Shown in pieces: positions 11,154-63,084 of a stretch of DNA of 64,000 nucleotides; position 1 is the stretch's first letter; every line of letters starts with the position of its first letter. A model generated the notes under the pieces. That model was not told where the DNA came from, ran no database searches, and saw only the letters and a list, made by a program, of their open reading frames with translations. The stretch spans positions 96,100 through 160,099 of the forward strand of contig CAZIZX010000002.1 in NCBI GenBank assembly GCA_964544275.1. The letters are read 5' to 3'. This DNA is from an uncultured Gammaproteobacteria bacterium. GTDB lineage: Bacteria; Patescibacteriota; Microgenomatia; UBA12405. A program made the position numbers and the translations under genes.

Positions 11154-13430
11154 TTACTCGATGCTGGTACGGCGACTATCGGTTAGAGGGGTAATGTTTT
11201 TTGTTTGAGGTGGTTTTGGAGTTAGTTTTGGTGTTGAATTATTGGGAGAAAGTGAATTTTGTTTTGGTTTGCCCCAACGTTGGCGGGAGATTTGGATAAG
11301 TTTTTGGCGGGCCTGGTTTTTGCAGGAAAGAGGTGGCAGGGTGACGGCATAAAACGGATTAGTGGTTTCAGAGTCGATTGAAAGTTTGTTGATAACTTGA
11401 TAGCGGCCGATTTTGACTAAGTCTTCGGGTGGAAATTGTGGTCCAAATTCTTTGCTTAAGATAAAGGCGTCCTGGTTGCCGACAACGAAAGAGACCATGG
11501 AGCCGACGTTGCCGAAAATAGCGTCCTGAATGGGGCGTTCAAGCTGGGCCATGTATTGATTGGCAACTATCAAATTTAATTTAAATTTGCGGGCTTCGGA
11601 GAGGATTTTGATAAACGAGGTGGTGGCGAAATTTTGAAATTCGTCAACATACAGGTAGAAATCGGACCTGGCCTCGGCTTCCTGGAAAACCCGGTTCATA
11701 GCTGAAAGTTGGATTTGGGTAATTAACATGGCACCAAGAAGAGCGGAGTTGTCTTCGCCTAATTTGCCGGTAGACAGATCGGCAATAAGAATTTTTTTCT
11801 CGTCCATAATTTGCTGGATATTGATTCTGGACTTAGGATGATTGATGGTGTTTCGGATGTTGCTGGAGGCAATAAACTGACCGACTTTGTTTAAAATGGG
11901 GGCAATAGCTTCGTTTTGGAATTTGGGATCCATACGGTTGAATTCATTGATCCAGAAATTTTTGAGAGTTTGGTTTCGGAGTTTGTTGATTACTTTGTCT
12001 CGGAAATTTTTGTTGGTGAGGATTTCAACGATGTCGACCAGGGTGGTATCGGGAGTGTTGACCAAAGTTAAGACGGCGTTTCTTAAAATGTGTTCAAGTC
12101 GGGGGCCCCAAGAGACTTCACCGTAGATTTTTTTGAAAATGGAGATAACGCCTGAAGCGACAAGTTCTTTTTGAGATTCATTTTGGGCTTCGAGAACATT
12201 GAGGGGATAGACGTATTCAGGATCAGCAGGATTGAAATAACAACAATCGTTAATACGATGAGAAGGTATGTAGTCAAGGATGTTATTGCATAAATCGCCG
12301 TGAGGATCGATAACAGCAACTCCACGGCCTTTGCGAATGTCGTCAATGGCCATGTTGGAAATTAAAGTAGTCTTGCCGGTACCGGACTTGCCGATAATAT
12401 ACATATGGCGACGGCGGTCTTCGCCTTGTTTGATGCCAAAGATGGAATCTTTGTTTCGAAACTCAGTTTTGGCAAAAAAGGTTATTTCTTTTTTTTGTTC
12501 TTCGGTAGTATCGTCGGCGACAGGAAGGTTTTCGGGTGGGTCGGAAAACAAATTTTTGCCCCAGGCGATGTTGGGCAGTTTGGTAAGTTTATTGGGAAAG
12601 TGCCAGAGAGCGGAGACTTCTTCGGTGTTGAGAATTTGGGATTTGAGTTTGGTAGAAATTTTACGATTTATGATGCAGTCGGGGAGTTTGTTGCGATTAA
12701 AAAGGTTAGGAGTAAAGGTCTTGATGGAGTTACCGCGGGGAGAGGTAAAGGCTCCGAAAGAGGAGGAAACTGAAGCAATCAGGCTAGGATTGTTAGAAGC
12801 GAGATTGATTTGAGCCAGGATACCGGGGAATTGAATTTTCTGTTCAAATATTGAACGGTCGGGATGAGCTTGGCGTAAGCCTTTTTCTTTGTCAATGACA
12901 ATACCGTTTTGGATAATATCCATTATTGAACTTTGCCAGTTTTTGGAGGCAGGACCGAGGATTATTTGATAGACAAAAAAGTCAGTAGTGCTATTTGATC
13001 GGGAAAGGGGGGCTAGGACGGAAACAAGAGGATCGGTATCGCGGAAATCACGGGCGGTTTTGAGGGGATAATTGTAGGATTTGGAGAGTCCGATTTGGGA
13101 GAAGTTGAGTAACTTGGGATTCTCCAGATCGGTAAAATAGTCCAGGGTATCTTTGGTGATGGCAGAAGGATATTGGGCTAGGATTTGGGATCGGACATAT
13201 TCCATGTTGTCGGTTGGCGCGACGACATAGAAATGAATTTGACCGTGACTAAGTACAATCTCCAGGCTGGCGATGGTCTTTCTTTTACCGCTAAGGCGGT
13301 CAATAAGAGAGGTGGAGCCGGATTGGGAGAAGTTACTTAAAAGTGAGGACATGGCTTCGAGGGTAAATTCGTTTTCTTGAGGGAGGCGGATTTCCAGTAT
13401 TGACAGGTTATTTTTGACGGTGTGCGCCAT
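11154..13430 (-). CDS. VirD4/TraG/TraD-like coupling-type ATPase (FtsK-HerA superfamily), soluble
   Basis: Walker A IIGKSGTGKTT followed about 20 aa later by DPHGD, and Walker B YLYVDEFQNF. No TM segments. Long N-terminal non-ATPase region. Confidence 0.55.
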   Translation of the reverse strand: MAHTVKNNLSILEIRLPQENEFTLEAMSSLLSNFSQSGSTSLIDRLSGKRKTIASLEIVLSHGQIHFYVVAPTDNMEYVRSQILAQYPSAITKDTLDYFTDLENPKLLNFSQIGLSKSYNYPLKTARDFRDTDPLVSVLAPLSRSNSTTDFFVYQIILGPASKNWQSSIMDIIQNGIVIDKEKGLRQAHPDRSIFEQKIQFPGILAQINLASNNPSLIASVSSSFGAFTSPRGNSIKTFTPNLFNRNKLPDCIINRKISTKLKSQILNTEEVSALWHFPNKLTKLPNIAWGKNLFSDPPENLPVADDTTEEQKKEITFFAKTEFRNKDSIFGIKQGEDRRRHMYIIGKSGTGKTTLISNMAIDDIRKGRGVAVIDPHGDLCNNILDYIPSHRINDCCYFNPADPEYVYPLNVLEAQNESQKELVASGVISIFKKIYGEVSWGPRLEHILRNAVLTLVNTPDTTLVDIVEILTNKNFRDKVINKLRNQTLKNFWINEFNRMDPKFQNEAIAPILNKVGQFIASSNIRNTINHPKSRINIQQIMDEKKILIADLSTGKLGEDNSALLGAMLITQIQLSAMNRVFQEAEARSDFYLYVDEFQNFATTSFIKILSEARKFKLNLIVANQYMAQLERPIQDAIFGNVGSMVSFVVGNQDAFILSKEFGPQFPPEDLVKIGRYQVINKLSIDSETTNPFYAVTLPPLSCKNQARQKLIQISRQRWGKPKQNSLSPNNSTPKLTPKPPQTKNITPLTDSRRTSIE

Positions 13431-13688
13431 GTGTATATTTTACATTATTTAAAATGGGGTAGAGAAACTAAGTCAGTAATAACAAACGAGGACTTACTTG
13501 TTGCAAAACAATACATATTGGTGTAGTATCGCATATGGAGCTAGTAAGACTTATAGTCTTGGATTGGCAAAGAAAATGTTTTGGAGATAAAAAGGATTTC
13601 TTGCGGCTGAAATTGGGCGATGACCTTAGAAAACAAACACTTGATATTATTATATTGAGTGATAATATAAGTCTATAATATTTTGAAG

Positions 13689-13704
13689 GATATCAAAAGA
13701 TATC
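13689..13704. promoter_or_regulatory. GATATC-N4-GATATC direct repeat of palindromic hexamers in a divergent intergenic region (candidate operator)
   Basis: Seen directly in sequence, about 260 nt upstream of the VirD4-like start and 23 nt upstream of conserved motif copy 1. Confidence 0.25.
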
Positions 13705-13726
13705 AGCATCTTTTTTGTATTCTTCA

Positions 13727-13800
13727 GAAAGCACTTTGACAACCCGAAGGATTGGGATCTAAAGAGGACGTAAAAATTTGTGTTTTCTTTGGATCCCAAT
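13727..13800 (+). promoter_or_regulatory. conserved ~20-nt motif (GAAAGCACTTTGACAACCCG) followed by a long perfect hairpin (13751-13800); copy 1
   Basis: The same motif recurs at 14296-14318, followed by a different-sequence long hairpin. It contains TTGACA, but no conserved -10 follows. Confidence 0.4.
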
Positions 13801-13879
13801 AAAGAAAGAAGGTGATGCAAATTGATTGCGGGCTGAGTTTTTATCCCTCAAAAAACAACAGCGCAAAAAGGAGAGACTG

Positions 13880-13996
13880 ATGTCTGGGAAGTGCAAATCC
13901 TGTGTGTACAAAAACAACTGTGTCCGACGGAAGAAGTGCCCCGGCCCTGTTGTCAAGGGTCAGAGGTCGAGAAAAGTCTCTTCCGATGGGCGATAG
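13880..13996 (+). CDS. small Cys-rich basic peptide (38 aa, MSGKCKSCVYKNNCVRRKKCPGPVVKGQRSRKVSSDGR)
   Basis: Strong RBS (AAAGGAG, 7 nt upstream of the ATG). Lies in an atypically GC-rich segment. Followed by hairpin 14091-14120 and a T-run. Coding status uncertain. Confidence 0.3.
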   Translation: MSGKCKSCVYKNNCVRRKKCPGPVVKGQRSRKVSSDGR

Positions 13997-14090
13997 ATCG
14001 CCAGAGAAGACGCCCAAGCGGCGAGCGGGACGACCACGGAGACCTAAACCGAGGCCGAAGACTAACTGCCGTTAGGGCAAAATGTGGTGT

Positions 14091-14160
14091 GGGAGCCAAA
14101 ACAAAGCCGTTTTGGCTCCCTGCCCTGGACCTGGTGCATTGTTTATTTTTTGCTTTTTTG
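14091..14160 (+). terminator. putative intrinsic terminator (GGGAGCCAAAAC...GTTTTGGCTCCC hairpin with a downstream T-rich tract)
   Basis: Perfect 12-bp stem. The T-rich tract starts about 20 nt downstream, which is atypical spacing. Confidence 0.3.
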
Positions 14161-14295
14161 GTGTTGAGTACACATTTTTCTTTTCTTTCGGGTTGTCTTT
14201 TATTGAAATTTAGTTTTAAGGGTGACTTTGAGACTAGTTTTCAATAAAATATAAGTTTTTGGAGCTAAAGACATAAAGCTTGTCAATTTAGCTTT

Positions 14296-14374
14296 GAAAA
14301 CAGCACTTTGACAACCCGGGGAACGATAGGGACCAAGAGAGACAGTTTTTTAAACTGTTTGTCTTGGTCCCTAT
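14296..14374 (+). promoter_or_regulatory. conserved motif copy 2 (GAAAACAGCACTTTGACAACCCG) plus long hairpin (14325-14374)
   Basis: Second copy of the motif. The hairpin is about 21 bp with a different sequence from copy 1, so the structure is conserved while the sequence is not. Confidence 0.4.
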
Positions 14375-14486
14375 TTGGATCAAGAAAGGAACAGGGTGAT
14401 GCCACCGTAGTCATGCGGCAATGATGCCAAGAAATTCTAGTTTATCCGCCGAACTTGAACTCCTACCCTCAAGGAGAAAACACAAC

Positions 14487-14684
14487 ATGCTTCCGGCTAA
14501 GAAAGAAAGAGTTGTTGACGATGACGTCGTCAGCACAGAAGAATATCGACGATCTCGCCGTCCTTCTCGGCAGCGTTCGGAAACGTATTATTGTATTGAC
14601 TCGAGCGGGGTTGTTCTTACTGCTCGGGAAGTGGCCGAGGCCCGAAAGGGTAACGGTCAAGAGCCGGTGAAGTTGGACGGCTAG
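14487..14684 (+). CDS. small basic hypothetical protein (65 aa)
   Basis: RBS AAGGAG 10 nt upstream. Arg codons are mostly CGN, unlike neighbouring genes. Followed by a strong terminator. Confidence 0.3.
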   Translation: MLPAKKERVVDDDVVSTEEYRRSRRPSRQRSETYYCIDSSGVVLTAREVAEARKGNGQEPVKLDG

Positions 14685-14694
14685 AGTTCGAGAA

Positions 14695-14790
14695 GAAGGG
14701 GGCGCTGCAAGCATTTTTGCAAACAGCGCCTCCGTATTTGTGGTGGTTTTTCGTTTTTGTTTTGTTCGTTTTTTCTTTTTTGTTTCCCGG
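14695..14790 (+). terminator. intrinsic terminator (GGGGGCGCTG...CAGCGCCTCC hairpin followed by a long T-rich run)
   Basis: 10-bp GC-rich stem followed by TTTTTCGTTTTTGTTTTGTTCGTTTTTTCTTTTTTG. Confidence 0.55.
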
Positions 14791-14848
14791 GTTGTTTTTA
14801 TATATAGTATTGCTTGTTTATAAAAATTTATTAAAATTTAAATAAGCT

Positions 14849-15064
14849 ATGAGTTGGGGGTCGAAAGAAAAACCGAAGGGTTTGTATTCGAATGGTACTT
14901 TTGATGGATTTAGGCCGTGCAGAATTGACGGAAAACCGGGTGTTTTGTTGAATGGGGTAGAAATGGCAAATTTAGCAGCGTTAGGATACGATGTAAAGCC
15001 GATAGAAATCAGGGTGGCTGAAAGAAAAAAACCAAGACATAATGGGCGAGGGTCATTGGATTAA
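14849..15064 (+). CDS. hypothetical small protein (71 aa)
   Basis: ORF with a plausible upstream TTGCTT-N16-TAAAAT promoter and a very short leader. No recognisable family. Confidence 0.3.
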   Translation: MSWGSKEKPKGLYSNGTFDGFRPCRIDGKPGVLLNGVEMANLAALGYDVKPIEIRVAERKKPRHNGRGSLD

Positions 15065-15166
15065 GTTTGTGATATAATTTCGAGGTTAAAGTTATTCATT
15101 TATTTTGGGCGTTAGTCCTGGGTAGTTCCTACCCCGCCTGTTTTAGAATTTAATAAGGACAAAATT

Positions 15167-16633: not shown

Positions 16634-17185
16634 ATGCTAAACACAATCGCAATAAGGTCGAGAATGGATAAAATTATGGAGATATTTGGAGAGGACATCG
16701 GATCGATAAGGACGGGAAGGGCGACACCGGGTTTGATTGAAAATGTTTTGGTGTCGGTATATGGCGGGCAGAAGATGAGGCTGATGGAGTTGGGGACGAT
16801 TTTGGTACCGGATGTGCGGACTTTGACTTTTCAACCTTGGGACGTGTCGGTATTGAAAGAGGTGAGTAATGGAATTGCTGTAGCCAATATTGGAATGAAT
16901 CCGGTAGTAGATGGGCAGTTGATAAGGATATCTTTGCCGGTGATGACAACGGAGCAAAGGGAAGACTATATTAAACTTTTGGGACGGAAGTTAGAAGGGG
17001 CCAGGGGAATGGTTCGGGATGTTCGGGGGGATTTCCGTAAAGATTTGCAGGATGCCAAGCAAGAGAAAACGATATCTGAGGATGAATATAAAAGAGATGA
17101 GACCGAACTGCAAAAAATTAACGATGAGTATATGTTAAAACTGGAAAAATTAGCTCAAAAGAAAGAGGAAGAAATCAGAGGATAG
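16634..17185 (+). CDS. frr: ribosome recycling factor
   Basis: The IRTGRATPGLIENV segment and the coiled-coil body are typical of RRF. The start could instead be the Met at 16664. Confidence 0.85.
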   Translation: MLNTIAIRSRMDKIMEIFGEDIGSIRTGRATPGLIENVLVSVYGGQKMRLMELGTILVPDVRTLTFQPWDVSVLKEVSNGIAVANIGMNPVVDGQLIRISLPVMTTEQREDYIKLLGRKLEGARGMVRDVRGDFRKDLQDAKQEKTISEDEYKRDETELQKINDEYMLKLEKLAQKKEEEIRG

Positions 17186-17189
17186 AGTT

Positions 17190-18239
17190 ATGAACTTAAT
17201 AATATTTATTGTGGCGTTATCTATATTAGTTTTGGTTCATGAGCTGGGGCATTATATTGCAGCCGTCAAAACGAAAGTGAAGGTGGAGGAATTTGGGTTG
17301 GGGCTGCCGCCGAGAATTACAGGAAAGAAAATCGGAGAAACGATTTTTAGTCTAAACTGGTTGCCGATTGGGGGGTTTTGTCGGTTGTACGGAGAGGATG
17401 GTGGGGGTAAAGGAGGCCGGGCGTTTAACAACAAAAATCCGTGGCAGAAATTGATAATCGTTTTGGGTGGGGTGCTGATGAACGTAGTTCTGGCAGTTTT
17501 GGTGTTTACGGTGGTTTATGCCATACTGGGAGTTCCTCAGAAGACAGATAGGGTGAAAATTATTGGGGTAGCAGCGGAATCTCCGGCGGAGGAAGTGGGG
17601 TTAGAAGAGGGGAATTGGATAAAAGAAGTGGCGGGAGAGCCAATTTCCGAACCGGAACAGCTGACTCAAAGGGTGAATGAATTTAAAGGAGAAACGGTTG
17701 AATTACTGGTGGAAAAAGATGGTGAGGAAGAAGTGGTGGGGGTTTTGGTCCGGGAGAGTCCGCCCGAGGGTGAAGGGGGTATGGGGATAGCTATATCCAA
17801 CACGGAGATGGTAAAGGTGCCCTGGTACCAGTTTTATAAGGGAGTGGTGGCGGGTTTTGAGGAGGCCTATTTTTGGGGTGAAATAATTGTGGGTGGAGTG
17901 GCCAAAATGATTGGTAGTTTGCTGAGCGGGCAAAGAGTAGAAGATGTGAGTGGGCCAATAGGAATGTTTCAGGCCACCAGTGCAATTCGGGAGAATCAGG
18001 GGATGCTGGCCGTGGTTCATTTCTTTGGAGTGGTTTCGGTTAATTTAGCGGTGGTAAATATTTTGCCTTTTCCGGCATTGGATGGAGGCAGGATTATGTT
18101 CGTGTTGTATGAGCTAATTACCAGAAGAAAACCGAACCAAAAAGTAGAGTCAATTATTAATAGTGTTGGGATGGTGGTTTTGCTGGGATTGATATTTTTG
18201 ATCACTGCCGGGGATATTGCCAGATTGGTTCGAAATTAG
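17190..18239 (+). CDS. rseP: RIP metalloprotease RseP (site-2 protease with PDZ)
   Basis: HELGHY zinc motif in TM1, a central PDZ-like region, and the C-terminal LDGG motif. Confidence 0.8.
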   Translation: MNLIIFIVALSILVLVHELGHYIAAVKTKVKVEEFGLGLPPRITGKKIGETIFSLNWLPIGGFCRLYGEDGGGKGGRAFNNKNPWQKLIIVLGGVLMNVVLAVLVFTVVYAILGVPQKTDRVKIIGVAAESPAEEVGLEEGNWIKEVAGEPISEPEQLTQRVNEFKGETVELLVEKDGEEEVVGVLVRESPPEGEGGMGIAISNTEMVKVPWYQFYKGVVAGFEEAYFWGEIIVGGVAKMIGSLLSGQRVEDVSGPIGMFQATSAIRENQGMLAVVHFFGVVSVNLAVVNILPFPALDGGRIMFVLYELITRRKPNQKVESIINSVGMVVLLGLIFLITAGDIARLVRN

Positions 18240-18335
18240 TTTTCAGGCTATTTTCATTTTTCTTTGTTGACGGGGGGTTTTAAAGGTGTTTTACTAGTTA
18301 TATTAGCTATTGTTTGCTTGATAATTAGTAAAAAA

Positions 18336-20204
18336 ATGGAAAAGAAGTTGAGGAGATTCAGGAAAAGTTTAGGCTTAGCCCAGATTCCCTTGATCATTGG
18401 TTTGCTGGTAATGGCAGTGGCGATTCCGGTGGCAACCAGGTTAGTAGAACAGAATCAGGATGTGAGGAATCGGGCGGCGAGTGACTGGATTTGTCAGGAG
18501 TCACAGTGTAAAGCAAATTGTGAAGCGCCTTGTACAACTCTACGAGTTTTTGATTCTAATACGGATGTTGGTAGATGTTCTAACGTGAGTAATACAAAAT
18601 CAATAAAGATACATTGTTCAAATACGAGTCCGCCTAAGCCGATTGCTACGGTAGGGCCACAACCATCACCCGCGCCCCACCCGGCTACTCCCATCCCGAC
18701 TCAGGGGACAGTTACACCGACAACCAAACCGACAGCGACTGTGACGACCAAGCCTACAGCAACAGCTACAACCAAACCGGCGGCTACCAGTGTTCCACAG
18801 CCAACGGCAAAGCCAACTTCAGCGCCTAGTGGCGGTACAACTTGCGCATCGAAGGGATTAAAAACATGTCAGGAAGCTTATTCTACCGATCAGGGGTGTT
18901 CGGGAGGTCAGGTTAAAGAATGTGTAAAGTATGGTTGTAATTCGACAGGTCAAGGGGGATCGGGTTGTCCTTTTGACAAAAATGAAAATGGTACTTCTTC
19001 TTGCGGTTCTTGCTTTACTCCTTCAGGCGGGGGTGGTGGGAGTAGCGGTGGTAGTGGGTATCATTCTTGTCCGTCTTCGGACGGTAATCCGAATAAGCAA
19101 GCTTGTTGTGATAGTAGTGGTAATTATGTTGATTGGTGGTTGTGCGGAGGAGCTGGGGATGGTGGTGGAGGACAAACTTTGACATCGTTTAATGGGGTGG
19201 TGGTAGACGAGACGGGAGCGAGATGGGTACCAGGGAATGATGATTGTTCGGCAAAGAAAGGAAGTGTTTCTATTAGTTCGTCTAAGGGGAATGTTAAGTG
19301 GTTGGGTCAAGGGACTCCTGATGCACGTTTTGATGTTACTGGGGTGCCTTTGTCGGAGGTGACGGTGGTGCTGAATCCTCCCGGAGGATGCGGCTACACT
19401 TGTGATAAGTGGAGGATTACTGATGTTGGGGATAATTTGAAATCTTGGAAGGTTGTTGCTGAAGGGAGCGGTTGCACTGTGAAACTTACGCCTTATAAGA
19501 AGGAATATAGGTCCGGTATAACCTTTTTTATGAAAAAAGTTACACCAACCCCTATGGTACCTCCCCGGTTTAATGTAACAATTGAAGGGCCGACAGAAGT
19601 AGTAAGGGGTGAGACGGCGACGTTTATTGCCAGATCGCAAAGTACGGATGTAAAATTAACCAATATTAAATTATATTGGGGTGATAAGGGGGTTGTGGAT
19701 AGTTTATCCGGTTCGATTAATCCATGGGCATTATTTAAAGAATGCAGCGGTAGTAATGTTACTAGTTGTCAGGGAAATTTTCCGACGGACCGTTTTGACG
19801 GGGAATATTATATTGTCGTTAATGCTTCGACTGGTAGCAACGTTCATTGCAGTGGCAATCCTACCTGCCGGAGTTATCCCTGTAGCGGATTTTATGATTG
19901 TGGAACGGGAGATAATATGGTTTTATCATTAAGTGTAGCGCCAACTAGTACGCCTGCATTAGCTCCGACGGCGATGGCTACACCAAAGCCAACAGCTGGA
20001 GTGACTGGTGTTCCGACGGGGACACCGACATTATGTGAAAAAGCCTTAAATGTTAGGCTGGAAGGCTGGAAAACAGAATATGTAGCAAACAGAGGAAGAA
20101 GAGTTTCAGGGACTTGGAATGCTGACGTCAACAGGGATGGTTATGTTGACATAGTGGATCGTTCAATCATTCTAGAATGCTTGATTAAAAACGGTATTAT
20201 GTAA
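18336..20204 (+). CDS. secreted Cys-rich protein with P/T-rich linker, Gly/Ser-rich segment and a C-terminal dockerin-like module
   Basis: N-terminal signal/anchor. TTKPTAT tandem repeats. C-terminal DVNRDGYVDIVDRSIILECLIKNG fits the dockerin Ca-loop pattern DxNxDGxVDxxD. The ORF opens at 18264. Confidence 0.5.
   Translation: MEKKLRRFRKSLGLAQIPLIIGLLVMAVAIPVATRLVEQNQDVRNRAASDWICQESQCKANCEAPCTTLRVFDSNTDVGRCSNVSNTKSIKIHCSNTSPPKPIATVGPQPSPAPHPATPIPTQGTVTPTTKPTATVTTKPTATATTKPAATSVPQPTAKPTSAPSGGTTCASKGLKTCQEAYSTDQGCSGGQVKECVKYGCNSTGQGGSGCPFDKNENGTSSCGSCFTPSGGGGGSSGGSGYHSCPSSDGNPNKQACCDSSGNYVDWWLCGGAGDGGGGQTLTSFNGVVVDETGARWVPGNDDCSAKKGSVSISSSKGNVKWLGQGTPDARFDVTGVPLSEVTVVLNPPGGCGYTCDKWRITDVGDNLKSWKVVAEGSGCTVKLTPYKKEYRSGITFFMKKVTPTPMVPPRFNVTIEGPTEVVRGETATFIARSQSTDVKLTNIKLYWGDKGVVDSLSGSINPWALFKECSGSNVTSCQGNFPTDRFDGEYYIVVNASTGSNVHCSGNPTCRSYPCSGFYDCGTGDNMVLSLSVAPTSTPALAPTAMATPKPTAGVTGVPTGTPTLCEKALNVRLEGWKTEYVANRGRRVSGTWNADVNRDGYVDIVDRSIILECLIKNGIM
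18723..18794 (+). repeat. 3 x 24-nt tandem repeat encoding a TTKPTATx linker
   Basis: The three units are ACCAAACCGACAGCGACTGTGACG, ACCAAGCCTACAGCAACAGCTACA and ACCAAACCGGCGGCTACCAGTGTT. Confidence 0.7.
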
Positions 20205-20217
20205 ATAGGGGAAAACA

Positions 20218-21414
20218 ATGAAAAACAAAACAACAATTTTGGTGATGTTGATACTGGCTGTTGCTTTGGTAGCGGTAATGGCAGTGATAAGCAGTCGGCA
20301 GGATTTGCGAAGAAGTGCCCATTATGCCAAGGGAAGTTTGTATTTAACTCCGACAGATAATGAGGTGAGGGTGGGGGATGATATTAATTTAATTTTAAAA
20401 GCTGTTCCCGGCCCAGATAGTCCGAAAATCCAAAATGTTCAGGCTTTTATCTGTTATAACAAAAGTATTTTGACGTTGGGTGATGATACAGTGGATGCTT
20501 CGGGAAATTATGTTAATGATGGTAGCTTGGCAAATATTAGGGTGATTAATAAAAACGTGTTTTTGGAAGAGCCGATAGTTTTTTTTGAGGATATTGCCGC
20601 TAAAAGATGCTTGAATTTGACAGTGGTTTCCAATAGAGCGTCAGAATTAACCAGTGAGGTGGTTGATGTGGCTTCAATTAAGTTTACAGCAATAGGTGAA
20701 GGAAACGGGGCGGTGGAGATCGTAAAAGCGGATTCGGTAATGTCGGGTTATATAGCCGATAATCTTGATAAAAGCATTGAAATTACAAACGTGGAAAATG
20801 CTAATTATTTGGTAAGGGCAGCACAGGAAGAGCCGCCAGTCGGGGAAGTTCCTTGGTTGAATTTCAAAATGGCCTTTATGGGAGTGAACAGCGAGTCATC
20901 TTGTGCAGTTAATTGGCCGATGACGTTGACAGTTTTGGGAGGTGGAGTGACCCGAGTGTACAGCAATGTTAAGGGTACAGTAGTAAGTGGAACTGAGGGT
21001 CCGGTGGTGTATAACGTAAGTTTGCCGTTGACTGGTTTTAATCAGACAGAGAAGGTGGCAGTGCTAATTAAGGGACCAAAACATCTTCAGGTAAAATATG
21101 CGGTTGATGGACAAAAGGGCTTTTACGGTGCTGCGGGAGGGGAATTGACATTGGCCAAAGACAAGGCAGCAAGTAAAGTTTACGATTTTACAGGTTATCC
21201 TTTGTTGGCGGGCGATGTGACGGGTAAAAATGGAATCCAGGATGGGTTAATTAATGGATTGGATTTTCTTTTCGTCAGAGATAAAGCCATAGCTAGGGCA
21301 AGGGATTTGCAGAATATGGACATGGCTGATTTAGATGGAAATTGTGTTCATAATTCGCTTGATATTACTTGGTTAATGCAATCACTTGCTGAAAGGCAAG
21401 AGCAAATGAATTAA
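20218..21414 (+). CDS. secreted protein with a cohesin-like beta-sandwich module and a C-terminal dockerin-like module
   Basis: N-terminal signal anchor. Cohesin-like segment (LYLTPTDNEVRVGDDINLILKAVPG...IQNVQAFICYNKSILTL). C-terminal dockerin-like ADLDGNCVHNSLDITWLMQSL. Confidence 0.4.
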   Translation: MKNKTTILVMLILAVALVAVMAVISSRQDLRRSAHYAKGSLYLTPTDNEVRVGDDINLILKAVPGPDSPKIQNVQAFICYNKSILTLGDDTVDASGNYVNDGSLANIRVINKNVFLEEPIVFFEDIAAKRCLNLTVVSNRASELTSEVVDVASIKFTAIGEGNGAVEIVKADSVMSGYIADNLDKSIEITNVENANYLVRAAQEEPPVGEVPWLNFKMAFMGVNSESSCAVNWPMTLTVLGGGVTRVYSNVKGTVVSGTEGPVVYNVSLPLTGFNQTEKVAVLIKGPKHLQVKYAVDGQKGFYGAAGGELTLAKDKAASKVYDFTGYPLLAGDVTGKNGIQDGLINGLDFLFVRDKAIARARDLQNMDMADLDGNCVHNSLDITWLMQSLAERQEQMN

Positions 21415-21429
21415 TATTAAAGGAGAAAA

Positions 21430-22038
21430 ATGATAAACAGTGAATTTGGAAAAACATTATTACCATTAGTTTCGGTGGTGGTTATTTTGCAGAGCGTTGT
21501 TTTGGTGAATAGTATTCGGGATAAAAGAAATATTGGGGTGCAGACATTGAGAAACGATGTAGACACTACTGTGGCAAGGGTAAGCGAGGCGAAAGTGTTC
21601 GATATGGTATTTGGTGTAGATTCAAAATCGATGGTTGTCGGTAAAAAATATGCGATTGACTTGAGTTTGCTGAGCAAGGAGCAAAGTAACGTTGGGTCAG
21701 TTGAAATTTATGTAAAATATGATCCAAGCGCTTTTGAGGTGAGTAATTTAAGTTATGATGGCAAATTACAAAAGCCAGATGTTTTGATTGCAGGGGAAAA
21801 GAAGGGGTTAGTGGTGGCAAATTATTATTCTCTAAATCCGGCCGGGTTTGCTTTTAATGAGGCAGAACACTATAGTCTAGTCATGTTTGATGTTAAGCCG
21901 AAGAAGGAAGGAAGCTTTGATTTTGAAATTAGTACTGGTAATGCCGGTGATGGTTCTGCTACCATGATTTTAGACAATAATACAAAGAAGGAATTGCTCT
22001 ACTCGAGCAATAAATTAACTGTTAATGTAACTAAGTAA
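21430..22038 (+). CDS. secreted protein with a cohesin-like module
   Basis: Signal anchor. Cohesin-like hallmark segment (GSVEIYVKYDPSAFEVSNLSYDG). Confidence 0.35.
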   Translation: MINSEFGKTLLPLVSVVVILQSVVLVNSIRDKRNIGVQTLRNDVDTTVARVSEAKVFDMVFGVDSKSMVVGKKYAIDLSLLSKEQSNVGSVEIYVKYDPSAFEVSNLSYDGKLQKPDVLIAGEKKGLVVANYYSLNPAGFAFNEAEHYSLVMFDVKPKKEGSFDFEISTGNAGDGSATMILDNNTKKELLYSSNKLTVNVTK

Positions 22039-22730
22039 TGAAGTATAAAAAAATTATAATTATAGGGTTAATAGTAATGGGAATGTTGGTTTCGGCCAGA
22101 GGGAGGGTGGCGCAGGCTGCGCCTCATTTTACGTTGTCACCGGCGACATACTCGGTTTCTGTGGGCAGTACTTTTGTGGTTGATCTGGGAGCCGATTCGG
22201 AGACTCAAAGTATTATTGCTATGGATGTAGTGGGTACTTTTGATCCAGTTAAGTTAGAGGTGGTATCAGTTGAGAAGAATAATACGACTAACTTTAATTT
22301 TGTGTTTGATACGACAACCCCAATTATACAAAATACCAACGGGAGGTTTGAGGTAACCTTGAGTCCGAGTAGTACCAGTGTTTATGACGCTCAGGTAGTG
22401 AAAGGAAGTTTGTTGAGGGTTAGGTTTAAAGCTAAAGCTGCTGGTGTGGCGAGTGTTAATTTGTCTTGTCAGGCTGGTTCGGTAACTGATACCAATATGT
22501 TTAATCAGAATTCAGAAGATGTAGTTAGCTGCGCTGCCAATCAAAGTGGTTCGTTTACACTGACTGCAGTGGGTGGTGATGGCGATGTCGTGAGTGATAC
22601 AACTACGGTGGCGACTACGGCCGCGCCGACGAGCGAGTTGCCGCAGACTGGTGGTATTGCTTCGACGATAGGATTGGTGTTGTTCGGGACTATCAGTGTA
22701 TTAGGCGCTCTTATGCTGAGGTTTTTATGA
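22038..22730 (+). CDS. cell-wall-anchored (LPxTG) protein with a cohesin-like module
   Basis: Signal peptide. Cohesin-like segment (VSVGSTFVVDLGADSETQSIIAMDVVGTFDPVKLEVVSVEK). C-terminal LPQTGG followed by a hydrophobic stretch and a charged tail, the classic sortase sorting signal. Confidence 0.45.
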   Translation: MKYKKIIIIGLIVMGMLVSARGRVAQAAPHFTLSPATYSVSVGSTFVVDLGADSETQSIIAMDVVGTFDPVKLEVVSVEKNNTTNFNFVFDTTTPIIQNTNGRFEVTLSPSSTSVYDAQVVKGSLLRVRFKAKAAGVASVNLSCQAGSVTDTNMFNQNSEDVVSCAANQSGSFTLTAVGGDGDVVSDTTTVATTAAPTSELPQTGGIASTIGLVLFGTISVLGALMLRFL

Positions 22731-23467
22731 AGGGAAGGGTGAATGCCAAAACTATCATTGTTTTGATAATTATGCTTTTGGTGGTGGTGTTGGGTGTTTT
22801 GGGAGCAAAAACGGTTCAAACATACTTGAGCGGTGCAACTGAAGATGTACTGCCCAGAAATGTAGTACCAACATCGAGTGAGGATGGTAGAAGTGTAGTT
22901 ATTTCCTGGATGTCGGACAAAGAATCTATGGGGGTGGTAGAGTATGGAACATCTCCGGCGTCTTTATTACTTCGGGCAATAGAGACGGGTCAAGTGACAA
23001 GCCACAAGGTAACTTTGACGCCGCTTAAACCGGGAACAGTTTATTATTTTCGGATAAAGATTGGCGAGGAGATATTTGATAACAGTGGTATACCCTATTC
23101 GGTTAAGACTAATGAGGATAAAGGAGTTGGAGTGGAAACAGAAGTAGAGACTCCAACGATAGAGTTAAAGCCGACGAGTGCGCCGGCGGGAAGCGGGGGA
23201 GATACTGAGGTGATAAGCAGCACATGCAACAGACAAACAGACTATAACGGTGATGGTGTAGTTAATGCGCTGGATCACATCCAGTGCATGAAAGGAGGGA
23301 CAGAAGGTGTTGTATCCGTGACTCCAACTCCGGCGGGAACGACACCGGTGATTCCATCCGAGGCAAGTGCAGCCAGTGAAGGTGAATGCAAGGCGGGGGT
23401 TGATTATGACGAAAACGGAGTGGTGAACAGCTTGGACATGATCAAGTGTTTACAAAATAAGAGATAA
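22727..23467 (+). CDS. secreted protein with an FN3/PAP-N-like domain and two dockerin-like repeats
   Basis: Signal anchor. FN3-like segment (VISWMSDKE...GTVYYFRIKIG). DYNGDGVVNALDHIQCMKG and DYDENGVVNSLDMIKCLQNK fit DxNxDGxVNxLD. Confidence 0.45.
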   Translation: MKGRVNAKTIIVLIIMLLVVVLGVLGAKTVQTYLSGATEDVLPRNVVPTSSEDGRSVVISWMSDKESMGVVEYGTSPASLLLRAIETGQVTSHKVTLTPLKPGTVYYFRIKIGEEIFDNSGIPYSVKTNEDKGVGVETEVETPTIELKPTSAPAGSGGDTEVISSTCNRQTDYNGDGVVNALDHIQCMKGGTEGVVSVTPTPAGTTPVIPSEASAASEGECKAGVDYDENGVVNSLDMIKCLQNKR

Positions 23468-23509
23468 TAGGTAGAATATTGAACTGTTAAAACAAAAGGG
23501 GGTGACCTG

Positions 23510-23725
23510 ATGCCAATAATCGTAAAGAAGAAAAAAGGTGAAAGTAAGGATGATGTAATCGGAAAATTCCGAAGGTTGTGTCTTGAAGAAGATATTACTG
23601 AAGAAGTGAAAAAAAGAGCTGCTTATTCTAAACCGTCTGAGGGCAGGTATGCCAAAAAGAAAATAATTTTGTGGAAAGAAAAATGCCGCAAACGAGCTAA
23701 AAATTCGAGAAAATATGTCTCTTAA
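23510..23725 (+). CDS. rpsU: 30S ribosomal protein S21
   Basis: KFRRLCLEEDITEEVKKRAAYSKPSEGRYAKKK matches the S21 core. 71 aa, basic. Confidence 0.8.
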   Translation: MPIIVKKKKGESKDDVIGKFRRLCLEEDITEEVKKRAAYSKPSEGRYAKKKIILWKEKCRKRAKNSRKYVS

Positions 23726-24158
23726 GGATCAAATTAAGTCAGACAGCGTGACTGCTTTAAAAGCGCATGAGAGCAACAGGGTGGAAGTGTTGCGGTACTT
23801 AGTATCGCTAATTGATAAGAAGGAACTGCAATTGCCACCCGGTGAAATGAAGGAAAGTGAAGCGATAAATGTTTTGAGGAAGGAGTTGAAGAATAAGGAA
23901 GAATCGAGAGAAATGTTTAAAAATGCAGGAAGGGATGATCTGGTTGAGTCTTTGGACTATGAAATTGAAATAGTGAAGAGTTATCTACCTGAAGATATGA
24001 ACGAAGAGGATATTAAAGCTATGGTGGATGGGGCGGTGGAGAAGTTTGGAGCTAATTTTGCCCTGGTAATGAGAGAGGTGATGCCTCAGGTACAGGGAAG
24101 GGCGGGAGGAGATCTGGTTTCCAGAATTGTTAAGGAAAAATTAAGTGAAGAAAAATAA
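23715..24158 (+). CDS. GatB/YqeY domain protein
   Basis: YqeY-like sequence throughout. Conserved rpsU-yqeY synteny as in Firmicutes. Confidence 0.7.
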   Translation: MSLKDQIKSDSVTALKAHESNRVEVLRYLVSLIDKKELQLPPGEMKESEAINVLRKELKNKEESREMFKNAGRDDLVESLDYEIEIVKSYLPEDMNEEDIKAMVDGAVEKFGANFALVMREVMPQVQGRAGGDLVSRIVKEKLSEEK

Positions 24159-24516
24159 TTCGGAGATATTGATTAAATACCCCAGGAATTGGGGGTTAAG
24201 TGAGGTTTGGGTGAAAAAGGCCTTGGGGAAGGGATTGGCAGAAAGGGGTTTTGGCAGAAATGTGGAAGTGAGTGTGATTTTTGTGGGTCAGGTAAGGGCT
24301 AAAAAATTAAATCAGGAATATAGACAAATGAACTATATTCCACAGGTTTTGGGATTTTCGATGTCAAAGGCAAAAGACGCGGACGGAATGATTAGGTTGG
24401 GCGATATCGTGATTTGCACCCAAAAGTTAAAGTATGAAGCCAAAATTTTGAAAAAAGATATTAAAGATGTTTTGAGCGACTGGTTGACTCATGGATTGGA
24501 CAATTTGCTTAAGTGA
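24145..24516 (+). CDS. YbeY-like protein (endoribonuclease fold, metal-binding His triad apparently degenerate)
   Basis: The N-terminal half aligns to YbeY (VIFVGQVRAKKLNQEYRQ...PQVLGF...LGDIVIC). The H3xH5xH motif is replaced by LTHGLDNLL. Confidence 0.4.
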   Translation: MKKNNSEILIKYPRNWGLSEVWVKKALGKGLAERGFGRNVEVSVIFVGQVRAKKLNQEYRQMNYIPQVLGFSMSKAKDADGMIRLGDIVICTQKLKYEAKILKKDIKDVLSDWLTHGLDNLLK

Positions 24517-24550
24517 TACATAAGAGACTAATTGCCAAGTTGGATAGTCT

Positions 24551-26089
24551 TTGATTAAATGGGAAGAGATGGCAGTTTTTCATTTGAAGTACAGACCACT
24601 TAAAATAGCGGACTTGGACTTGGCCGATGTATCAGCGAAATTTGCCAGTATATTGGGTAATAGGGATATACCCCAATGCTTTTTATTTGCCGGGCCGAAA
24701 GGGGCTGGGAAGACTTCAGCTGCCAGGATTTTGGCCAGAGCGATAAATTGTGAGGATAAACAAGGGGTAGAGCCTTGCGGTAAGTGTGGGAATTGTAAGG
24801 AAATATTGAGTGGATCGAGTATGGATATTATGGAAATCGATGCTGCTTCGAACAGGGGGATTGAGGATGTGCGGGCACTAAGAGATAAGGCGTATTTACT
24901 GCCGAGCAAATTGAGTCGGAAAGTATTTATTGTGGATGAGGTTCATATGATGACGAAGGAGGCGTTTAATGCTCTTTTGAAGTTGATTGAGGAGCCTCCG
25001 GTTCACACCATGTTTATTTTGTGTACAACTGACGCGCAAAAGATTCCGGAAACGGTGTTGTCTCGGTTGATGAGGGTTGACTTTCGGAAAGGGGAGAAAA
25101 GTGAGTTGGTCAAGTCGCTTAAGAGGGTGGTAAAAGGGGAAAAGCTGGAAATAGAAAAAGAAATTTTGGAGTTGATAGCTGAAAAGAGTGACGGGAGTTT
25201 CCGGAACGTACAAAAGGCGTTGAATGAAATGTTTTTACTTTTTGGAAAAAAGTTGGACAAGGATTTGGTTGAAAAATATTTTGCTAGCAAGGGTGGAGAT
25301 TATACCGAGGAAGAGTTTGAGACAGATTTAAAGAATAGGGAGGTGAGAAAGATTCTGGAAAGGATGGAAAAAATGGCTGATGTGGGAGTGGATTTTACAA
25401 GTTTTAGAGAGAAAATAATCAGTTATTTCCAGAAGCAGATATTGGCAGTTTATGGAGTGGGAGAGAAAAGGAAAGGAGGATTGGGAGTAGGAGATATGGT
25501 GAGGCTGATAAACTTGCTGATTTTGGCTAGCAGAAAAGAGAAAGATATCAGTGTTGATCAGCTACCAATGGAGTTGGCGGTGATTGAATTTTTGGGTGAG
25601 AGCATGGATGGCAAGGGTGAAAATAAAAAATCAGAGGAGGAGACGAGGGCGGCTAAAAATGGAGTTGAGAAGAAACAAGAAACTAAGAAGGTAAACAAAG
25701 GGTTGGATGTTTCGATTGAAATGAAAGAGGTAGAGGAGGCTTGGGGGAAGGTGCTGTTGGCGGTAAAACCGTTTAATCACTCGGTGGAAGCGTTTTTGAG
25801 AGCGGTTAGACCGAGAGAGGTGAGTGGGGATTGTTTGGTGCTGGAAGTATTTTATCCTTTCCATAAAGAAAAGTTGGAGGAGAATAAGAATCGTCGAATA
25901 GTAGAAACAGGACTTAAAAAAGTATTTGGTTGCGATATGGGTTTTGAGTGTATTTTGAGCCAAACCCGGAAAAAACCATTAATAATAGATAATAATACTC
26001 CAATTGAAGTGGTGAGCGACGATGGTAGTCTGGGAGATAAGCAGACGGACAGGGAAATGTATGATGTAGCTAAAGAGATTTTTGGGTAG
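24551..26089 (+). CDS. dnaX: DNA polymerase III subunit gamma/tau
   Basis: Walker A GPKGAGKTSAARILARAINC, the zinc module CGKCGNC, and the sensor/SRC region. Confidence 0.85.
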   Translation: MIKWEEMAVFHLKYRPLKIADLDLADVSAKFASILGNRDIPQCFLFAGPKGAGKTSAARILARAINCEDKQGVEPCGKCGNCKEILSGSSMDIMEIDAASNRGIEDVRALRDKAYLLPSKLSRKVFIVDEVHMMTKEAFNALLKLIEEPPVHTMFILCTTDAQKIPETVLSRLMRVDFRKGEKSELVKSLKRVVKGEKLEIEKEILELIAEKSDGSFRNVQKALNEMFLLFGKKLDKDLVEKYFASKGGDYTEEEFETDLKNREVRKILERMEKMADVGVDFTSFREKIISYFQKQILAVYGVGEKRKGGLGVGDMVRLINLLILASRKEKDISVDQLPMELAVIEFLGESMDGKGENKKSEEETRAAKNGVEKKQETKKVNKGLDVSIEMKEVEEAWGKVLLAVKPFNHSVEAFLRAVRPREVSGDCLVLEVFYPFHKEKLEENKNRRIVETGLKKVFGCDMGFECILSQTRKKPLIIDNNTPIEVVSDDGSLGDKQTDREMYDVAKEIFG

Positions 26090-35748: not shown

Positions 35749-36447
35749 TTATTGTTCAGGTACCGGAGTTGGGGTGGGTATACTTTGTTGAAATATTTTG
35801 ACTGCGTAAAATGTTTTGGCCATAGTCGGGTGGGGCTTAATGATACAAATTATTTTTTGTCCCGTTACTATGGTAGTATCAGTCGGTTTTTTGTTATTTT
35901 TGTCGAGGATTATAGTTTTGGTGTCGGTAGTTATCTGGTATTGCTGGTCTTTGTTTTGGGTGGGTATGAGGACAAAAACGGGAGAGGAGACGGAGGCATC
36001 GACGACAGCGCCGATTAAAACTTGTTCCTGACTTTGAATTGTTTTTATGTCCATAAAAATAAGTCTTTTGGTTTCTAGGACGTTGGGTTCGGTAAGATAA
36101 CCCATAGCCAGTACATCCTGACCAACCTGTATCTTGTCAAACTGAGTTTTGTTTCTTTTGGAATCAATATAAGTTGTATCGTCGTTGACGATAAGGGTCA
36201 GGTTTTGGGAATTGTGGGTTATTAATATTTGATTTTGGTTTATTTGCGATACTGTGCCGATATGACCCTTTTTGGTTGATTCGGGATCGGTAATGTCTTT
36301 AATTTTTTCCAGGACTTTATCCTGAACCACCTGTCTTATTTTTTGGATTTCATCCAGATTGACTGGGTTGGGGGTGGGTGTATTGGCGTAGACAAATTGG
36401 GTGGTAAAAACAAGGGAAAGAATAAGGCTAATGATGGTAATTATCAT
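35749..36447 (-). CDS. hypothetical secreted/membrane-anchored protein
   Basis: N-terminal hydrophobic anchor, a Pro/Thr linker and beta-rich repeats. No catalytic motif. Confidence 0.3.
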   Translation of the reverse strand: MIITIISLILSLVFTTQFVYANTPTPNPVNLDEIQKIRQVVQDKVLEKIKDITDPESTKKGHIGTVSQINQNQILITHNSQNLTLIVNDDTTYIDSKRNKTQFDKIQVGQDVLAMGYLTEPNVLETKRLIFMDIKTIQSQEQVLIGAVVDASVSSPVFVLIPTQNKDQQYQITTDTKTIILDKNNKKPTDTTIVTGQKIICIIKPHPTMAKTFYAVKIFQQSIPTPTPVPEQ

Positions 36448-36450
36448 AGA

Positions 36451-60744: not shown

Positions 60745-60753
60745 TTAAAATAT

Positions 60754-63038: not shown

Positions 63039-63084
63039 TAGTCAATAATGATTGTTAACAAGCAATTAATTGTTAAATAAATAG

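Follow-up and report, generated by a model that had tools for sequence, protein, structure and literature searches.

A conserved cohesin–dockerin gene cluster of Candidatus Shapirobacteria as a probable non-cellulolytic system for protein assembly at the cell surface

Five adjacent genes of Candidatus Shapirobacteria, a lineage of ultra-small CPR bacteria, probably encode a small non-cellulolytic cohesin–dockerin system that assembles proteins at the cell surface, and constitute a core-genome operon of this lineage, with four conserved genes (p2–p5) and a variable slot (p1). Most likely, the proteins form a snap-together surface scaffold showing a fast-evolving cysteine-rich protein. The genes (Table 1) lie in a 64 kb window, i.e. 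the whole stretch of DNA that was analysed.

Table 1. Positions of the five genes and of the cargo leader in the window
Feature	Position	Strand	Description
p1, variable cargo	18336..20204	+	ORF listed from TTG 18264
Conserved N-terminal cargo leader	18336..18497	+	basic residues, then GLAQIPLxIGLLxMAxAxPVATKLVQxNQDxRNxAA
p2, adaptor	20218..21414	+	cohesin + Ig-like + dockerin
p3, single cohesin	21430..22038	+	hydrophobic N-terminal helix + cohesin 55-202
p4, predicted wall-anchored cohesin	22038..22730	+	Pfam Cohesin, LPQTG
p5, FN3-like + dockerin	22727..23467	+	Pur_ac_phosph_N + Dockerin_1

The original prediction had described five consecutive co-oriented ORFs with signal or anchor sequences at their starts, and all five were found within 18264–23467, closely spaced in one orientation and each opening with a hydrophobic segment. 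The p1/p2 and p2/p3 gaps were 13 and 15 bp respectively, the p3 stop and the p4 start overlapped by 1 bp (ATGA at 22038) and p4 and p5 overlapped by 4 bp, suggesting that the five genes are translationally coupled. For p1, ATG 18336 is probably the true start, rather than the TTG 18264 proposed earlier; the orthologues start a few residues upstream of the conserved leader (GLAQIPL...). A six-frame search of the window for the strict Ca-loop pattern gave hits at 20124, 23240 and 23402 only, all in-frame within the cluster, and the hallmark strings quoted for the modules were present in the sequence. Conserved paired cysteine residues occurred in all of the modules and a secreted thioredoxin-like protein is encoded within the window, which points to extracytoplasmic folding of the modules.

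The three cohesin-like modules that had been proposed were all identified as cohesins, that of p4 by Pfam and those of p2 and p3 by hhalign comparison with p4 or its family. The p4 protein consists of a putative signal peptide, a single cohesin with two invariant cysteine residues, a T/P/S-rich linker, LPQTG, a hydrophobic stretch and a basic tail. Its Cohesin score was 32.1 bits (cut-off 24.1), with matches in 39 of the 41 orthologues, and its Gram_pos_anchor score was 19.8 bits, 0.2 bits under the cut-off of 20, with matches in 27 of the 41. The LPxTG signal claimed for one cohesin-like protein was located in p4 at 22638, the single occurrence of this motif with a hydrophobic tail in the window, and its L, P and G were invariant across the 41 orthologues. 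Neither the window nor 69 related loci yielded a sortase gene. We predict that p4 is the wall-anchored base of the assembly. The p2 protein matched the p4 family with 98.2% probability, and p3 matched p4 with 81% probability (E 1.2e-5); p3 had a Pfam Cohesin score of 17.0 bits, under the cut-off of 24.1, and 22 of its 38 orthologues had a Cohesin match. In p3 the N-terminal helix (residues 6–27 in the AF2 model), with a nearly invariant Glu21/Ser22, is followed by a variable linker of ~30 aa, and the protein is probably membrane-tethered. Sequence identity to solved cohesins was only 7–20%.

Dockerin-like ends had been assigned to p1, p2 and p5, and the profiles of p2, p5 and the p1-slot proteins matched solved dockerins at the family level. 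The p2 protein has a signal/anchor helix (residues 4–32 in the AF2 model), a cohesin (~36–200), an Ig-like β-sandwich (~213–325) and a two-helix dockerin (~326–398), which contains the Ca loop DLDGNCVHNSLD and an insertion of 5–6 residues in loop 1. Its Dockerin_1 score was 19.4 bits, under the cut-off of 22.9, and its C-terminal profile matched the dockerins 8x39, 1ohz_B (E 1.1e-4) and 2ccl_B. Among 124 p2 homologues, those with a named lineage belonged to Shapirobacteria, except for one from Woesebacteria, and the Ig–dockerin dyad (residues 214–397) recurred on paralogues with different N-termini. In p5, a hydrophobic N-terminal helix is followed by an FN3-like domain (Pur_ac_phosph_N, 39.8 bits, cut-off 30), a linker and two canonical Ca loops, which scored 23.5 bits for Dockerin_1; thus in the Pfam check proposed earlier Cohesin (p4) and Dockerin_1 (p5) passed their cut-offs. 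The two domains were found in 41 and 36 of the 41 p5 orthologues respectively, and the p5 profile aligned both loops with 1ohz_B and 4fl4_A (E 1.3e-4). The linker between the loops is unusually long, and each loop is flanked by a conserved cysteine pair (C-x5-DYNxDGVVNxLD-x3-C), with each of the four cysteine residues either invariant or conserved in 90% or more of the orthologues. Judged from this pattern, the p5 C-terminus is a split dockerin, probably stapled by disulfides.

The p1 protein consists of the leader, a P/T-rich linker, a cysteine-rich body dark to Pfam and a C-terminal dockerin remnant. In the window the second Ca loop (DVNRDGYVDIVD) alone is intact and the first is lost, so docking of p1 may be weakened or single-mode. 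Although its Dockerin_1 score was 12.7 bits (under 22.9), the profile of the p1-slot C-terminus matched ~25 solved PDB dockerins (best E 3e-7), which supports assignment of the p1 C-terminus, by homology, as a dockerin at the family level. Apart from the leader and, at the C-terminus, a dockerin of two repeats (GDANCDG..SIWR..DFNCDG..SIWR), the p1-slot proteins of different genomes had nothing in common; such a dockerin closed nearly all of those with an assembled C-terminus. Otherwise the slot, with products of 185 to 1643 aa, held a different cysteine-rich, Pfam-dark protein each time. Between p1 and its closest relative the body could be aligned at residues 308–646 only, with 35% identity, whereas neighbouring genes were 66–99% identical. 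By contrast with this slot, p2–p3–p4–p5, followed by rpsU–yqeY–ybeY–dnaX, had a fixed order and place in ~45 Candidatus Shapirobacteria genomes or loci. The cluster thus combines three distinct single-cohesin proteins (p2, p3 and p4) with three distinct dockerin types, namely the p1 cargo type, the p2 Ig–dockerin dyad and the split, cysteine-bracketed type of p5.

A phmmer search with the leader against 1.84 billion cluster representatives (E<=1e-3) gave a family of 157 proteins of 68–2778 aa, in all of which the match was N-terminal; 87 of the 119 members of at least 250 aa also carried a dockerin, and the median cysteine content was 8.3%. Pfam analysis of 73 representative cargo proteins having both leader and dockerin revealed VWA (2), FG-GAP (1), Big_2 (1), fn3 (1) and Cys-knot-like matches, and none had a GH, CBM, CE, PL or peptidase domain. 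These results bear on the possibility of a true (mini-)cellulosome, in which the scaffold would tether enzymes that degrade polysaccharides and carry dockerins, their genes lying elsewhere in the genome. Expressed cohesin/dockerin proteins of Ca. Shapirobacterales have been read as cellulosome components, with GH and PL genes in the same genome (PMC9123182), and such proteins of Roizmanbacterium have been read in the same way; at one related locus (L007) a GH18 gene adjoins an X-dockerin paralogue, and one p1-slot protein had a GH123 match, though sub-threshold (20.5 bits, cut-off 23.1). However, Pfam detected no GH, CBM, CE or PL domain in p1–p5, in agreement with the earlier claim for glycoside hydrolases, or in nine p1-slot proteins, all Pfam-dark, the L007 GH18 has no recorded dockerin match, and the X-dockerin paralogues with precomputed Pfam matches showed cohesin or dockerin only. 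Furthermore, each scaffold protein has one cohesin, and so a multi-enzyme integrating scaffoldin is absent. We therefore consider a cellulosome unlikely, although more dockerin-bearing enzymes may be encoded elsewhere in the genome. The term 'mini-cellulosome-like' remains apt for the principle of assembly, but not for cellulose degradation, and the earlier guess of an adhesive rather than cellulolytic role is strengthened by the cargo domains.

We then analysed co-evolution by mirror-tree comparison in 30 genomes, corrected for yqeY and ybeY distances and assessed by permutation. The p4 cohesin co-varied with the p2 X-dockerin (r=0.54, p=0.0005) and the p2 cohesin with the cargo dockerin (r=0.47, p=0.0005), with distances near saturation (mean 1.78 for the p2 cohesin), whereas the remaining cohesin–dockerin pairs were at or below 0.33. 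Co-evolution thus tentatively favours these two pairings; for the second, the p1 dockerin and p2 cohesin are encoded side by side, and a shared recombination history could mimic co-evolution. Another possibility is that the five are independent surface proteins with common β-sandwich and EF-hand-like modules, without specific mutual binding, their neighbourhood reflecting envelope co-regulation only. Cohesin and dockerin modules are said (Peer and colleagues reportedly, in 2009) to be widespread outside cellulosomes, with partners often not known, several Pfam scores in the window were sub-threshold, and the p5 dockerin co-evolved with no cohesin (r<=0.17). Against this, the two significant pairs, the 3:3 balance between distinct cohesin and distinct dockerin families, preserved together in ~45 genomes, the apparent translational coupling and the retention of the dockerin on cargo whose remaining body is replaced make independence very improbable. 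The modules could also build a non-covalent fibre or pilus-like polymer, a head-to-tail chain of p2 from a p4 base with p1 or p5 as the cap, as p2 carries cohesin, Ig-like domain and dockerin on a single chain and, in Ruminococcus flavefaciens, the dockerin of ScaH reportedly recognises the cohesin of the same protein (PMC5301203). But co-variation of the p2 cohesin was weaker with the p2 X-dockerin (r=0.27), although both lie on one polypeptide, than with the dockerin of the cargo. We also saw neither a pilin motif nor an isopeptide signature, nor a sortase of the pilus type (Pfam on the five proteins; the window and 69 related loci), and such a polymer seems quite unlikely.

In the favoured surface scaffold, a sortase would attach p4 to the wall, the p4 cohesin would hold the p2 X-dockerin, and the p2 cohesin would hold the variable cargo p1 by its dockerin, and likewise other leader- and dockerin-bearing proteins encoded elsewhere, giving a wall–p4–p2–cargo chain with the cargo displayed at its tip. 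The p3 protein would provide a second, membrane-proximal cohesin, and p5 may be an accessory FN3–dockerin protein. The variability of the cargo, its high cysteine content and the occasional VWA, FG-GAP and Ig-like domains suggest an adhesin or ligand-binding protein that may touch other cells or particles.

Cohesin/dockerin proteins are already known in Shapirobacterales, those of BG1-G2 being expressed in groundwater and read as a 'cellulosome', with Ca. Roizmanbacterium cited (Bell et al. 2022, PMC9123182); the likeness to the present cluster is at the level of lineage and domain types. In Saccharibacteria, SEML1_0315, a dockerin-domain envelope protein, is reported to be essential for growth in an epibiont (PMC10633639). 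Both studies took domain annotations as 'cellulosome' or glycan targeting, and as far as their texts show, neither apparently described the conserved scaffold of four genes, the slot for variable cargo, the cargo leader or the absence of CAZyme cargo. The Ruminococcus flavefaciens sca cluster (scaC–scaA–scaB–cttA–scaE, PMC5301203), likewise five co-oriented cohesin/dockerin genes, is a close parallel in operon logic. Its sortase-anchored base ScaE, which has LPXTG and one cohesin, is the docking site for the XDoc dyads of both ScaB and CttA (PMC5301203) and resembles p4, whose anchoring is predicted; ScaC, an adaptor with one cohesin and one dockerin, resembles p2, and CttA, a non-enzymatic binding protein docked straight to the surface, resembles p1 or p5. 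The Shapirobacteria cluster differs in its CPR host and its place amid housekeeping genes, in having one split, cysteine-bracketed dockerin but no multi-cohesin scaffoldin, and in its cargo, which is cysteine-rich and hypervariable with its own conserved leader and, where examined, lacks CBM and glycoside hydrolase domains. In type II anchoring of Clostridium thermocellum (CipA X-DocII on the SdbA, OlpB or Orf2p cohesins) an Ig-like X module likewise precedes the dockerin that fixes the adaptor to a wall-bound cohesin, in a similar two-tier anchor/adaptor/cargo hierarchy. However, those anchors use SLH domains rather than the LPXTG of p4, the adaptor carries a CBM3 in addition to nine cohesins, and the cargo consists of enzymes. 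The glycoside-hydrolase toxins of Clostridium perfringens (GH33 sialidase cohesin, PDB 2vo8; NagJ cohesin–FN3, 2w1n) are also non-cellulosomal and combine cohesin with FN3-type modules, but there the modules belong to large secreted enzymes, which they link to one another, whereas in Shapirobacteria they reside on small dedicated scaffold proteins, with a predicted wall anchor, and on non-enzymatic cargo.

The five + strand genes p1–p5 are co-oriented and tightly packed between rseP and rpsU, as the original prediction had it, with gaps of 13 and 15 bp, a single base pair shared by the p3 stop and the p4 start, and 4 bp shared by p4 and p5. The motifs quoted for them proved to be both present and cluster-specific: a six-frame scan for Ca loops returned three sites in the 64 kb, all of them in frame within the cluster, and LPxTG followed by a hydrophobic tail occurred once in the window. 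p1, as called, starts at a TTG (18264; 646 aa), 24 residues ahead of a conserved N-terminal leader, and its orthologues begin near the ATG at 18336. A promoter and terminator scan of 17000-24600 gave results at chance level and thus does not define the operon boundaries. The adjacent rseP is an M50 protease gene. A functional tie of the cluster to rseP was considered and rejected, as their adjacency belongs to the common housekeeping order rpsB-tsf-frr-rseP and many relatives have intervening genes.

Positions in the window of the cluster and of other features discussed
Feature	Position	Strand	Remarks
TraG/VirD4-like coupling ATPase	11154-13430	-	L003 orthologue with DUF8128 and TrwB_AAD_bind
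Gene-poor stretch	13431-15166
15-nt box, two copies	13731 and 14303
38-aa Cys-rich ORF	13880-13996
29-aa very basic ORF	13986-14075
rseP	17190-18239		gene before the cluster
Cluster p1–p5	18264-23467	+
Leader of p1	18336-18497	+
p4	22038-22730	+
p5	22727-23467	+
rpsU	23510-23725		gene after the cluster
Two small secreted proteins with P/T-rich linkers	35749-36915	-	one with a Glucodextran_B-type Ig-like domain, 28.5 bits
Secreted Cys-rich thioredoxin-like protein	50975-51952	-	VSR_TRX 40.7 bits; weaker GILT and Thioredoxin_4
Type IV pilus gene set	59005-63774		PilB-, PilT- and PilC-like, and a pilin with N_methyl motif; another envelope machine

The order p2-p3-p4-p5 followed by rpsU-yqeY-ybeY-dnaX-ybaB-recR recurred in approximately 45 loci of Shapirobacteria, indicating that p2–p5 form a core-genome operon rather than an island. 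A phage or mobile-element origin was ruled out by these fixed housekeeping neighbours (~45 genomes), by the lack of any PHROG match of note and by a GC content like that of the surroundings. Lineage-named homologues of the cluster proteins came from Candidatus Shapirobacteria, plus one named Woesebacteria. Compared with the closest relative, rseP was 86%, rpsU 99% and p4 78% identical, and p1 could be aligned in its C-terminal half only, at 35%. The full-synteny operon, with rpsU up to 99% identical, was also found in several public MAG records titled 'uncultured Gammaproteobacteria bacterium' (loci L008, L011-L014, L019, L021, L024, L027, L028 and others); as the operon is specific to Shapirobacteria, these titles appear to be wrong.

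The β-rich modules of p2, p3 and p4 had been described as cohesin-like. p4 scored 32.1 bits with Pfam Cohesin (PF00963) against a curated cut-off of 24.1, and 39 of its 41 orthologues matched this model. The window p3 reached 17.0 bits against the same cut-off, with 22/38 orthologues matching at E<=0.01, and the N-terminal domain of p2, which is without a Pfam match, was aligned to the p4 family by hhalign with 98.2% probability. On these matches all three modules are cohesins, and the prediction is borne out. The nine-stranded flattened β-sandwich (jelly-roll) that defines the cohesin fold was found in the modelled proteins, p2 and p3; the AF2 model of p3 was built from an alignment of database homologues. 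The nearest cohesins by structure include non-cellulosomal modules of C. perfringens. Family profiles were needed for p4 and p2, as single-sequence searches of the PDB returned nothing useful, the sole match of p4 being the LPxTG region of an IgA receptor. Searches of NCBIfam and PHROGs gave nothing significant.

Dockerin-like ends had been proposed for p1, p2 and p5, and two tandem segments of ~22 residues, in which a helix follows a 12-residue EF-hand-like Ca loop, were indeed found. This part of the prediction stood for p5, just above the Pfam Dockerin (PF00404) cut-off (23.5 against 22.9), and, at the level of family profiles, for p2 and p1; it did not stand for the scores of p2 and p1 themselves, which were below the cut-off (19.4 and 12.7 respectively), nor for the first loop of p1. 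Profiles of the p1-type, p2 and p5 ends matched solved dockerins with E-values of 3e-7 to 1.3e-4. In the p2 model, helices were seen at residues 347-359 and 380-397 with a loop ahead of each; loop 2 (DLDGNCVHNSLD) has canonical residues at positions 1, 3, 5, 9 and 12, and loop 1 carries an insertion of 5-6 residues. The C-terminus of the p2 family profile matched the solved dockerins 8x39 (E 4.7e-6) and 1ohz_B (E 1.1e-4). p5 contains an FN3-like domain (Pur_ac_phosph_N in 41/41 orthologues) as well as two canonical Ca loops. A conserved Cys pair flanks each loop, and the linker between the two is unusually long (38 residues in the window, shorter in most orthologues). Dockerin_1 was matched by 36 of the 41 p5 orthologues (E<=0.01), and both loops of the profile aligned to 1ohz_B and 4fl4_A (E 1.3e-4). 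Ca2+ dependence of the dockerins is predicted from the conserved Asp/Asn at loop positions 1, 3, 5, 9 and 12.

The C-terminus of p1 gave the lowest dockerin score and has a canonical loop 2 only. Proteins at the same position in other genomes (the p1-slot) nearly all finish with a full two-repeat dockerin, GDANCDG..DYSIWR...WxADFNCDG..SIWR; the profile of these ends matched ~25 solved dockerins (best E 3e-7), and 15 of 26 ends had a Pfam match (E<=0.01). Loop 1 has been lost in the window p1 and in the two proteins closest to it; all three retain helix 1, loop 2 and the conserved Trp residues. A search of the PDB with p1 matched low-complexity linkers only, and a protein search with the cargo-dockerin profile (61-70 aa) found short fragments only. 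The Ig-like plus dockerin dyad of p2 (residues 214-397; hereafter the X-dockerin) is also carried by paralogues with other N-termini, several per genome. Such paralogues were seen in L007:5992-9653, L007:9966-11219 and other loci (L031-L066), some genomes having two or three, and one adjoins a GH18 gene and an ATP-grasp/7TM-transglutaminase cluster.

One of the cohesin-like proteins had also been credited with an LPxTG wall-sorting signal; this is p4, and the prediction proved correct. The p4 C-terminus, ...ELPQTGGIASTIGLVLFGTISVLGALMLRFL, is built as a sorting signal, with LPQTG ahead of hydrophobic residues and a basic tail; across the 41 orthologues L, P and G never vary, and at least 90% have the T. 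The anchor models scored slightly under their cut-offs (Gram_pos_anchor 19.8 against 20; TIGR01167 14.9 against 15.9). A phmmer search with an approximate SrtA query, a scan for the TLxTC motif and Pfam searches of the unassigned ORFs detected no sortase-like ORF in the 64 kb of the window or in 69 related loci; wall anchoring of p4 is predicted from its signal. A sortase-assembled Gram-positive pilus was considered and rejected, as the pilin motif or isopeptide domains and the dedicated pilus sortase that mark such pili were not found in the cluster. Every module of the cluster contains paired conserved cysteine residues. The secreted thioredoxin-like protein of the window is a candidate extracytoplasmic disulfide oxidoreductase, and its presence together with the paired cysteine residues fits oxidative folding outside the cell.

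The p1-slot proteins range from 185 to 1643 aa and have only the N-terminal leader and the C-terminal dockerin in common. The leader consists of basic residues followed by GLAQIPLxIGLLxMAxAxPVATKLVQxNQDxRNxAA, and is found at the N-termini of p1-slot proteins in L001-L061. Searching 1.84 billion proteins with it yielded 157 cluster representatives, otherwise unrelated and all matched at the N-terminus; among leader proteins of at least 250 aa, 87/119 have a dockerin of one of the three types, in most cases that of the cargo, with a median Cys content of 8.3%. The NQ(D/E)TR box that comes after the helix is also present in p2. The leader could be a lineage-specific signal for export, processing or anchoring.

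A cellulosome is built on a multi-cohesin scaffoldin that brings together CAZymes bearing dockerins, in most cases along with a CBM. The cluster differs on these points: each scaffold protein has one cohesin, and no CBM or GH domain was found in the five cluster proteins, nine p1-slot proteins or 73 representatives of the cargo family. In the same 73 representatives Pfam detected no esterase, lyase or peptidase either, the only matches being VWA (2), FG-GAP (1), Big_2 (1), fn3 (1) and Cys-knot-like ones, and the nine large p1-slot proteins were Pfam-dark save for one sub-threshold GH123 match. A cargo family of this composition speaks for binding or adhesion rather than cellulolysis, in support of the original prediction of adhesive or host-interaction machinery. 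Cohesin and dockerin genes are no sign of cellulose degradation in the case of this conserved operon and its cargo family; this corrects a reading now entering the literature and matters when carbon cycling is inferred from metagenomes.

If the cluster works like known systems, p4 would form the base on the wall, p2 would be an adaptor whose X-dockerin may hold on to p4, and the variable cargo would dock onto the p2 cohesin; p3 is probably membrane-tethered. In a mirror-tree analysis of 30 genomes, with yqeY+ybeY distances regressed out, the two strongest cohesin–dockerin correlations were those of the predicted pairs, p4 cohesin with X-dockerin (r=0.54) and p2 cohesin with cargo dockerin (r=0.47; permutation p=0.0005 each). 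The p3 cohesin correlated with the X-dockerin at r = 0.33, and the p5 dockerin with no cohesin. These values hint weakly at a wall–p4–p2–cargo order, the distances being near saturation and the p1 dockerin and p2 cohesin being neighbours in the DNA. For p4 and the X-dockerin simple linkage is less likely, since the p3 cohesin lies between them and is less well correlated with the X-dockerin.

The assembly principle is the classical cohesin–dockerin one, and the closest architectural match is the sca cluster of R. flavefaciens (ScaC, ScaA, ScaB, CttA and ScaE), in which ScaE, a single cohesin with a sortase-processed LPXTG, binds the XDoc dyads of ScaB and CttA, the latter a binding protein that is not an enzyme (PMC5301203). 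Cohesin and dockerin domains are not new in the lineage: Bell et al. (2022) reported expressed proteins of this kind in CPR Ca. Shapirobacterales, read them as cellulosome components and cited the same for Ca. Roizmanbacterium (PMC9123182), and Wang et al. (2023) reported an envelope protein with a dockerin domain that is essential in a Saccharibacterium (PMC10633639). The literature searched does not describe a conserved scaffold of four genes, a variable slot for Cys-rich cargo that has a leader of its own, three different types of dockerin, one of them split and Cys-bracketed, or the lack of CAZymes among the cargo. The observation is confirmed and its interpretation supported; cohesin–dockerin binding, its dependence on Ca, processing by a sortase and attachment to a biological target are predictions.

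We tentatively suggest, giving it rather less than an even chance, that the Shapirobacteria operon is a minimal cohesin–dockerin 'adhesome' whose sole job would be to plug interchangeable adhesins onto a fixed wall-anchored p4–p2 socket chain, the adhesins being hypervariable and cysteine-rich, each with the lineage-specific leader and a C-terminal dockerin. If so, an ultra-small CPR bacterium would possess a modular device for attaching to hosts or particles, and this would be the first cohesin–dockerin system with a non-enzymatic conserved cargo class; the leader (GLAQIPL...PVATKLVQxNQDTRNxAA) would then act as a new signal dedicated to export or anchoring. Beyond a few cultivated Saccharibacteria, little is known of how CPR/Patescibacteria attach to partners or surfaces, and the operon offers a concrete, testable candidate: its four small conserved scaffold proteins can be expressed recombinantly, and the fast-evolving cargo slot could set specificity. 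Protein-assembly engineering could also gain new parts from the small, disulfide-containing modules with a single cohesin and from the three cohesin–dockerin pairs, which appear to be orthogonal.

The remaining gene content of the window is typical of CPR, including the type IV pilus genes and the TraG-like ATPase, both of them further envelope machines. The two small secreted proteins with P/T-rich linkers contain neither dockerin nor cohesin. GC skew was strongly positive (+0.16 to +0.50) across positions 1-64000, even at 45-58 kb where genes are on the minus strand, and its sign does not change, so that neither an origin nor a terminus lies in the window. A gene-poor 1.7 kb lies between the TraG/VirD4-like ATPase gene and rpsB; it had no Rfam match, and its first ~850 nt are 69% identical to L003:3968-4805 in a relative. 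Two copies of a 15-nt box, GCACTTTGACAACCC, are each followed by a perfect hairpin of ~23 bp, the hairpins differing in sequence (z -5.9 and -6.9), and by an SD-like GGTGAT. After the first copy there is a conserved 38-aa Cys-rich ORF (MSGKCKSCVYKNNC...), overlapped by a very basic ORF of 29 aa.
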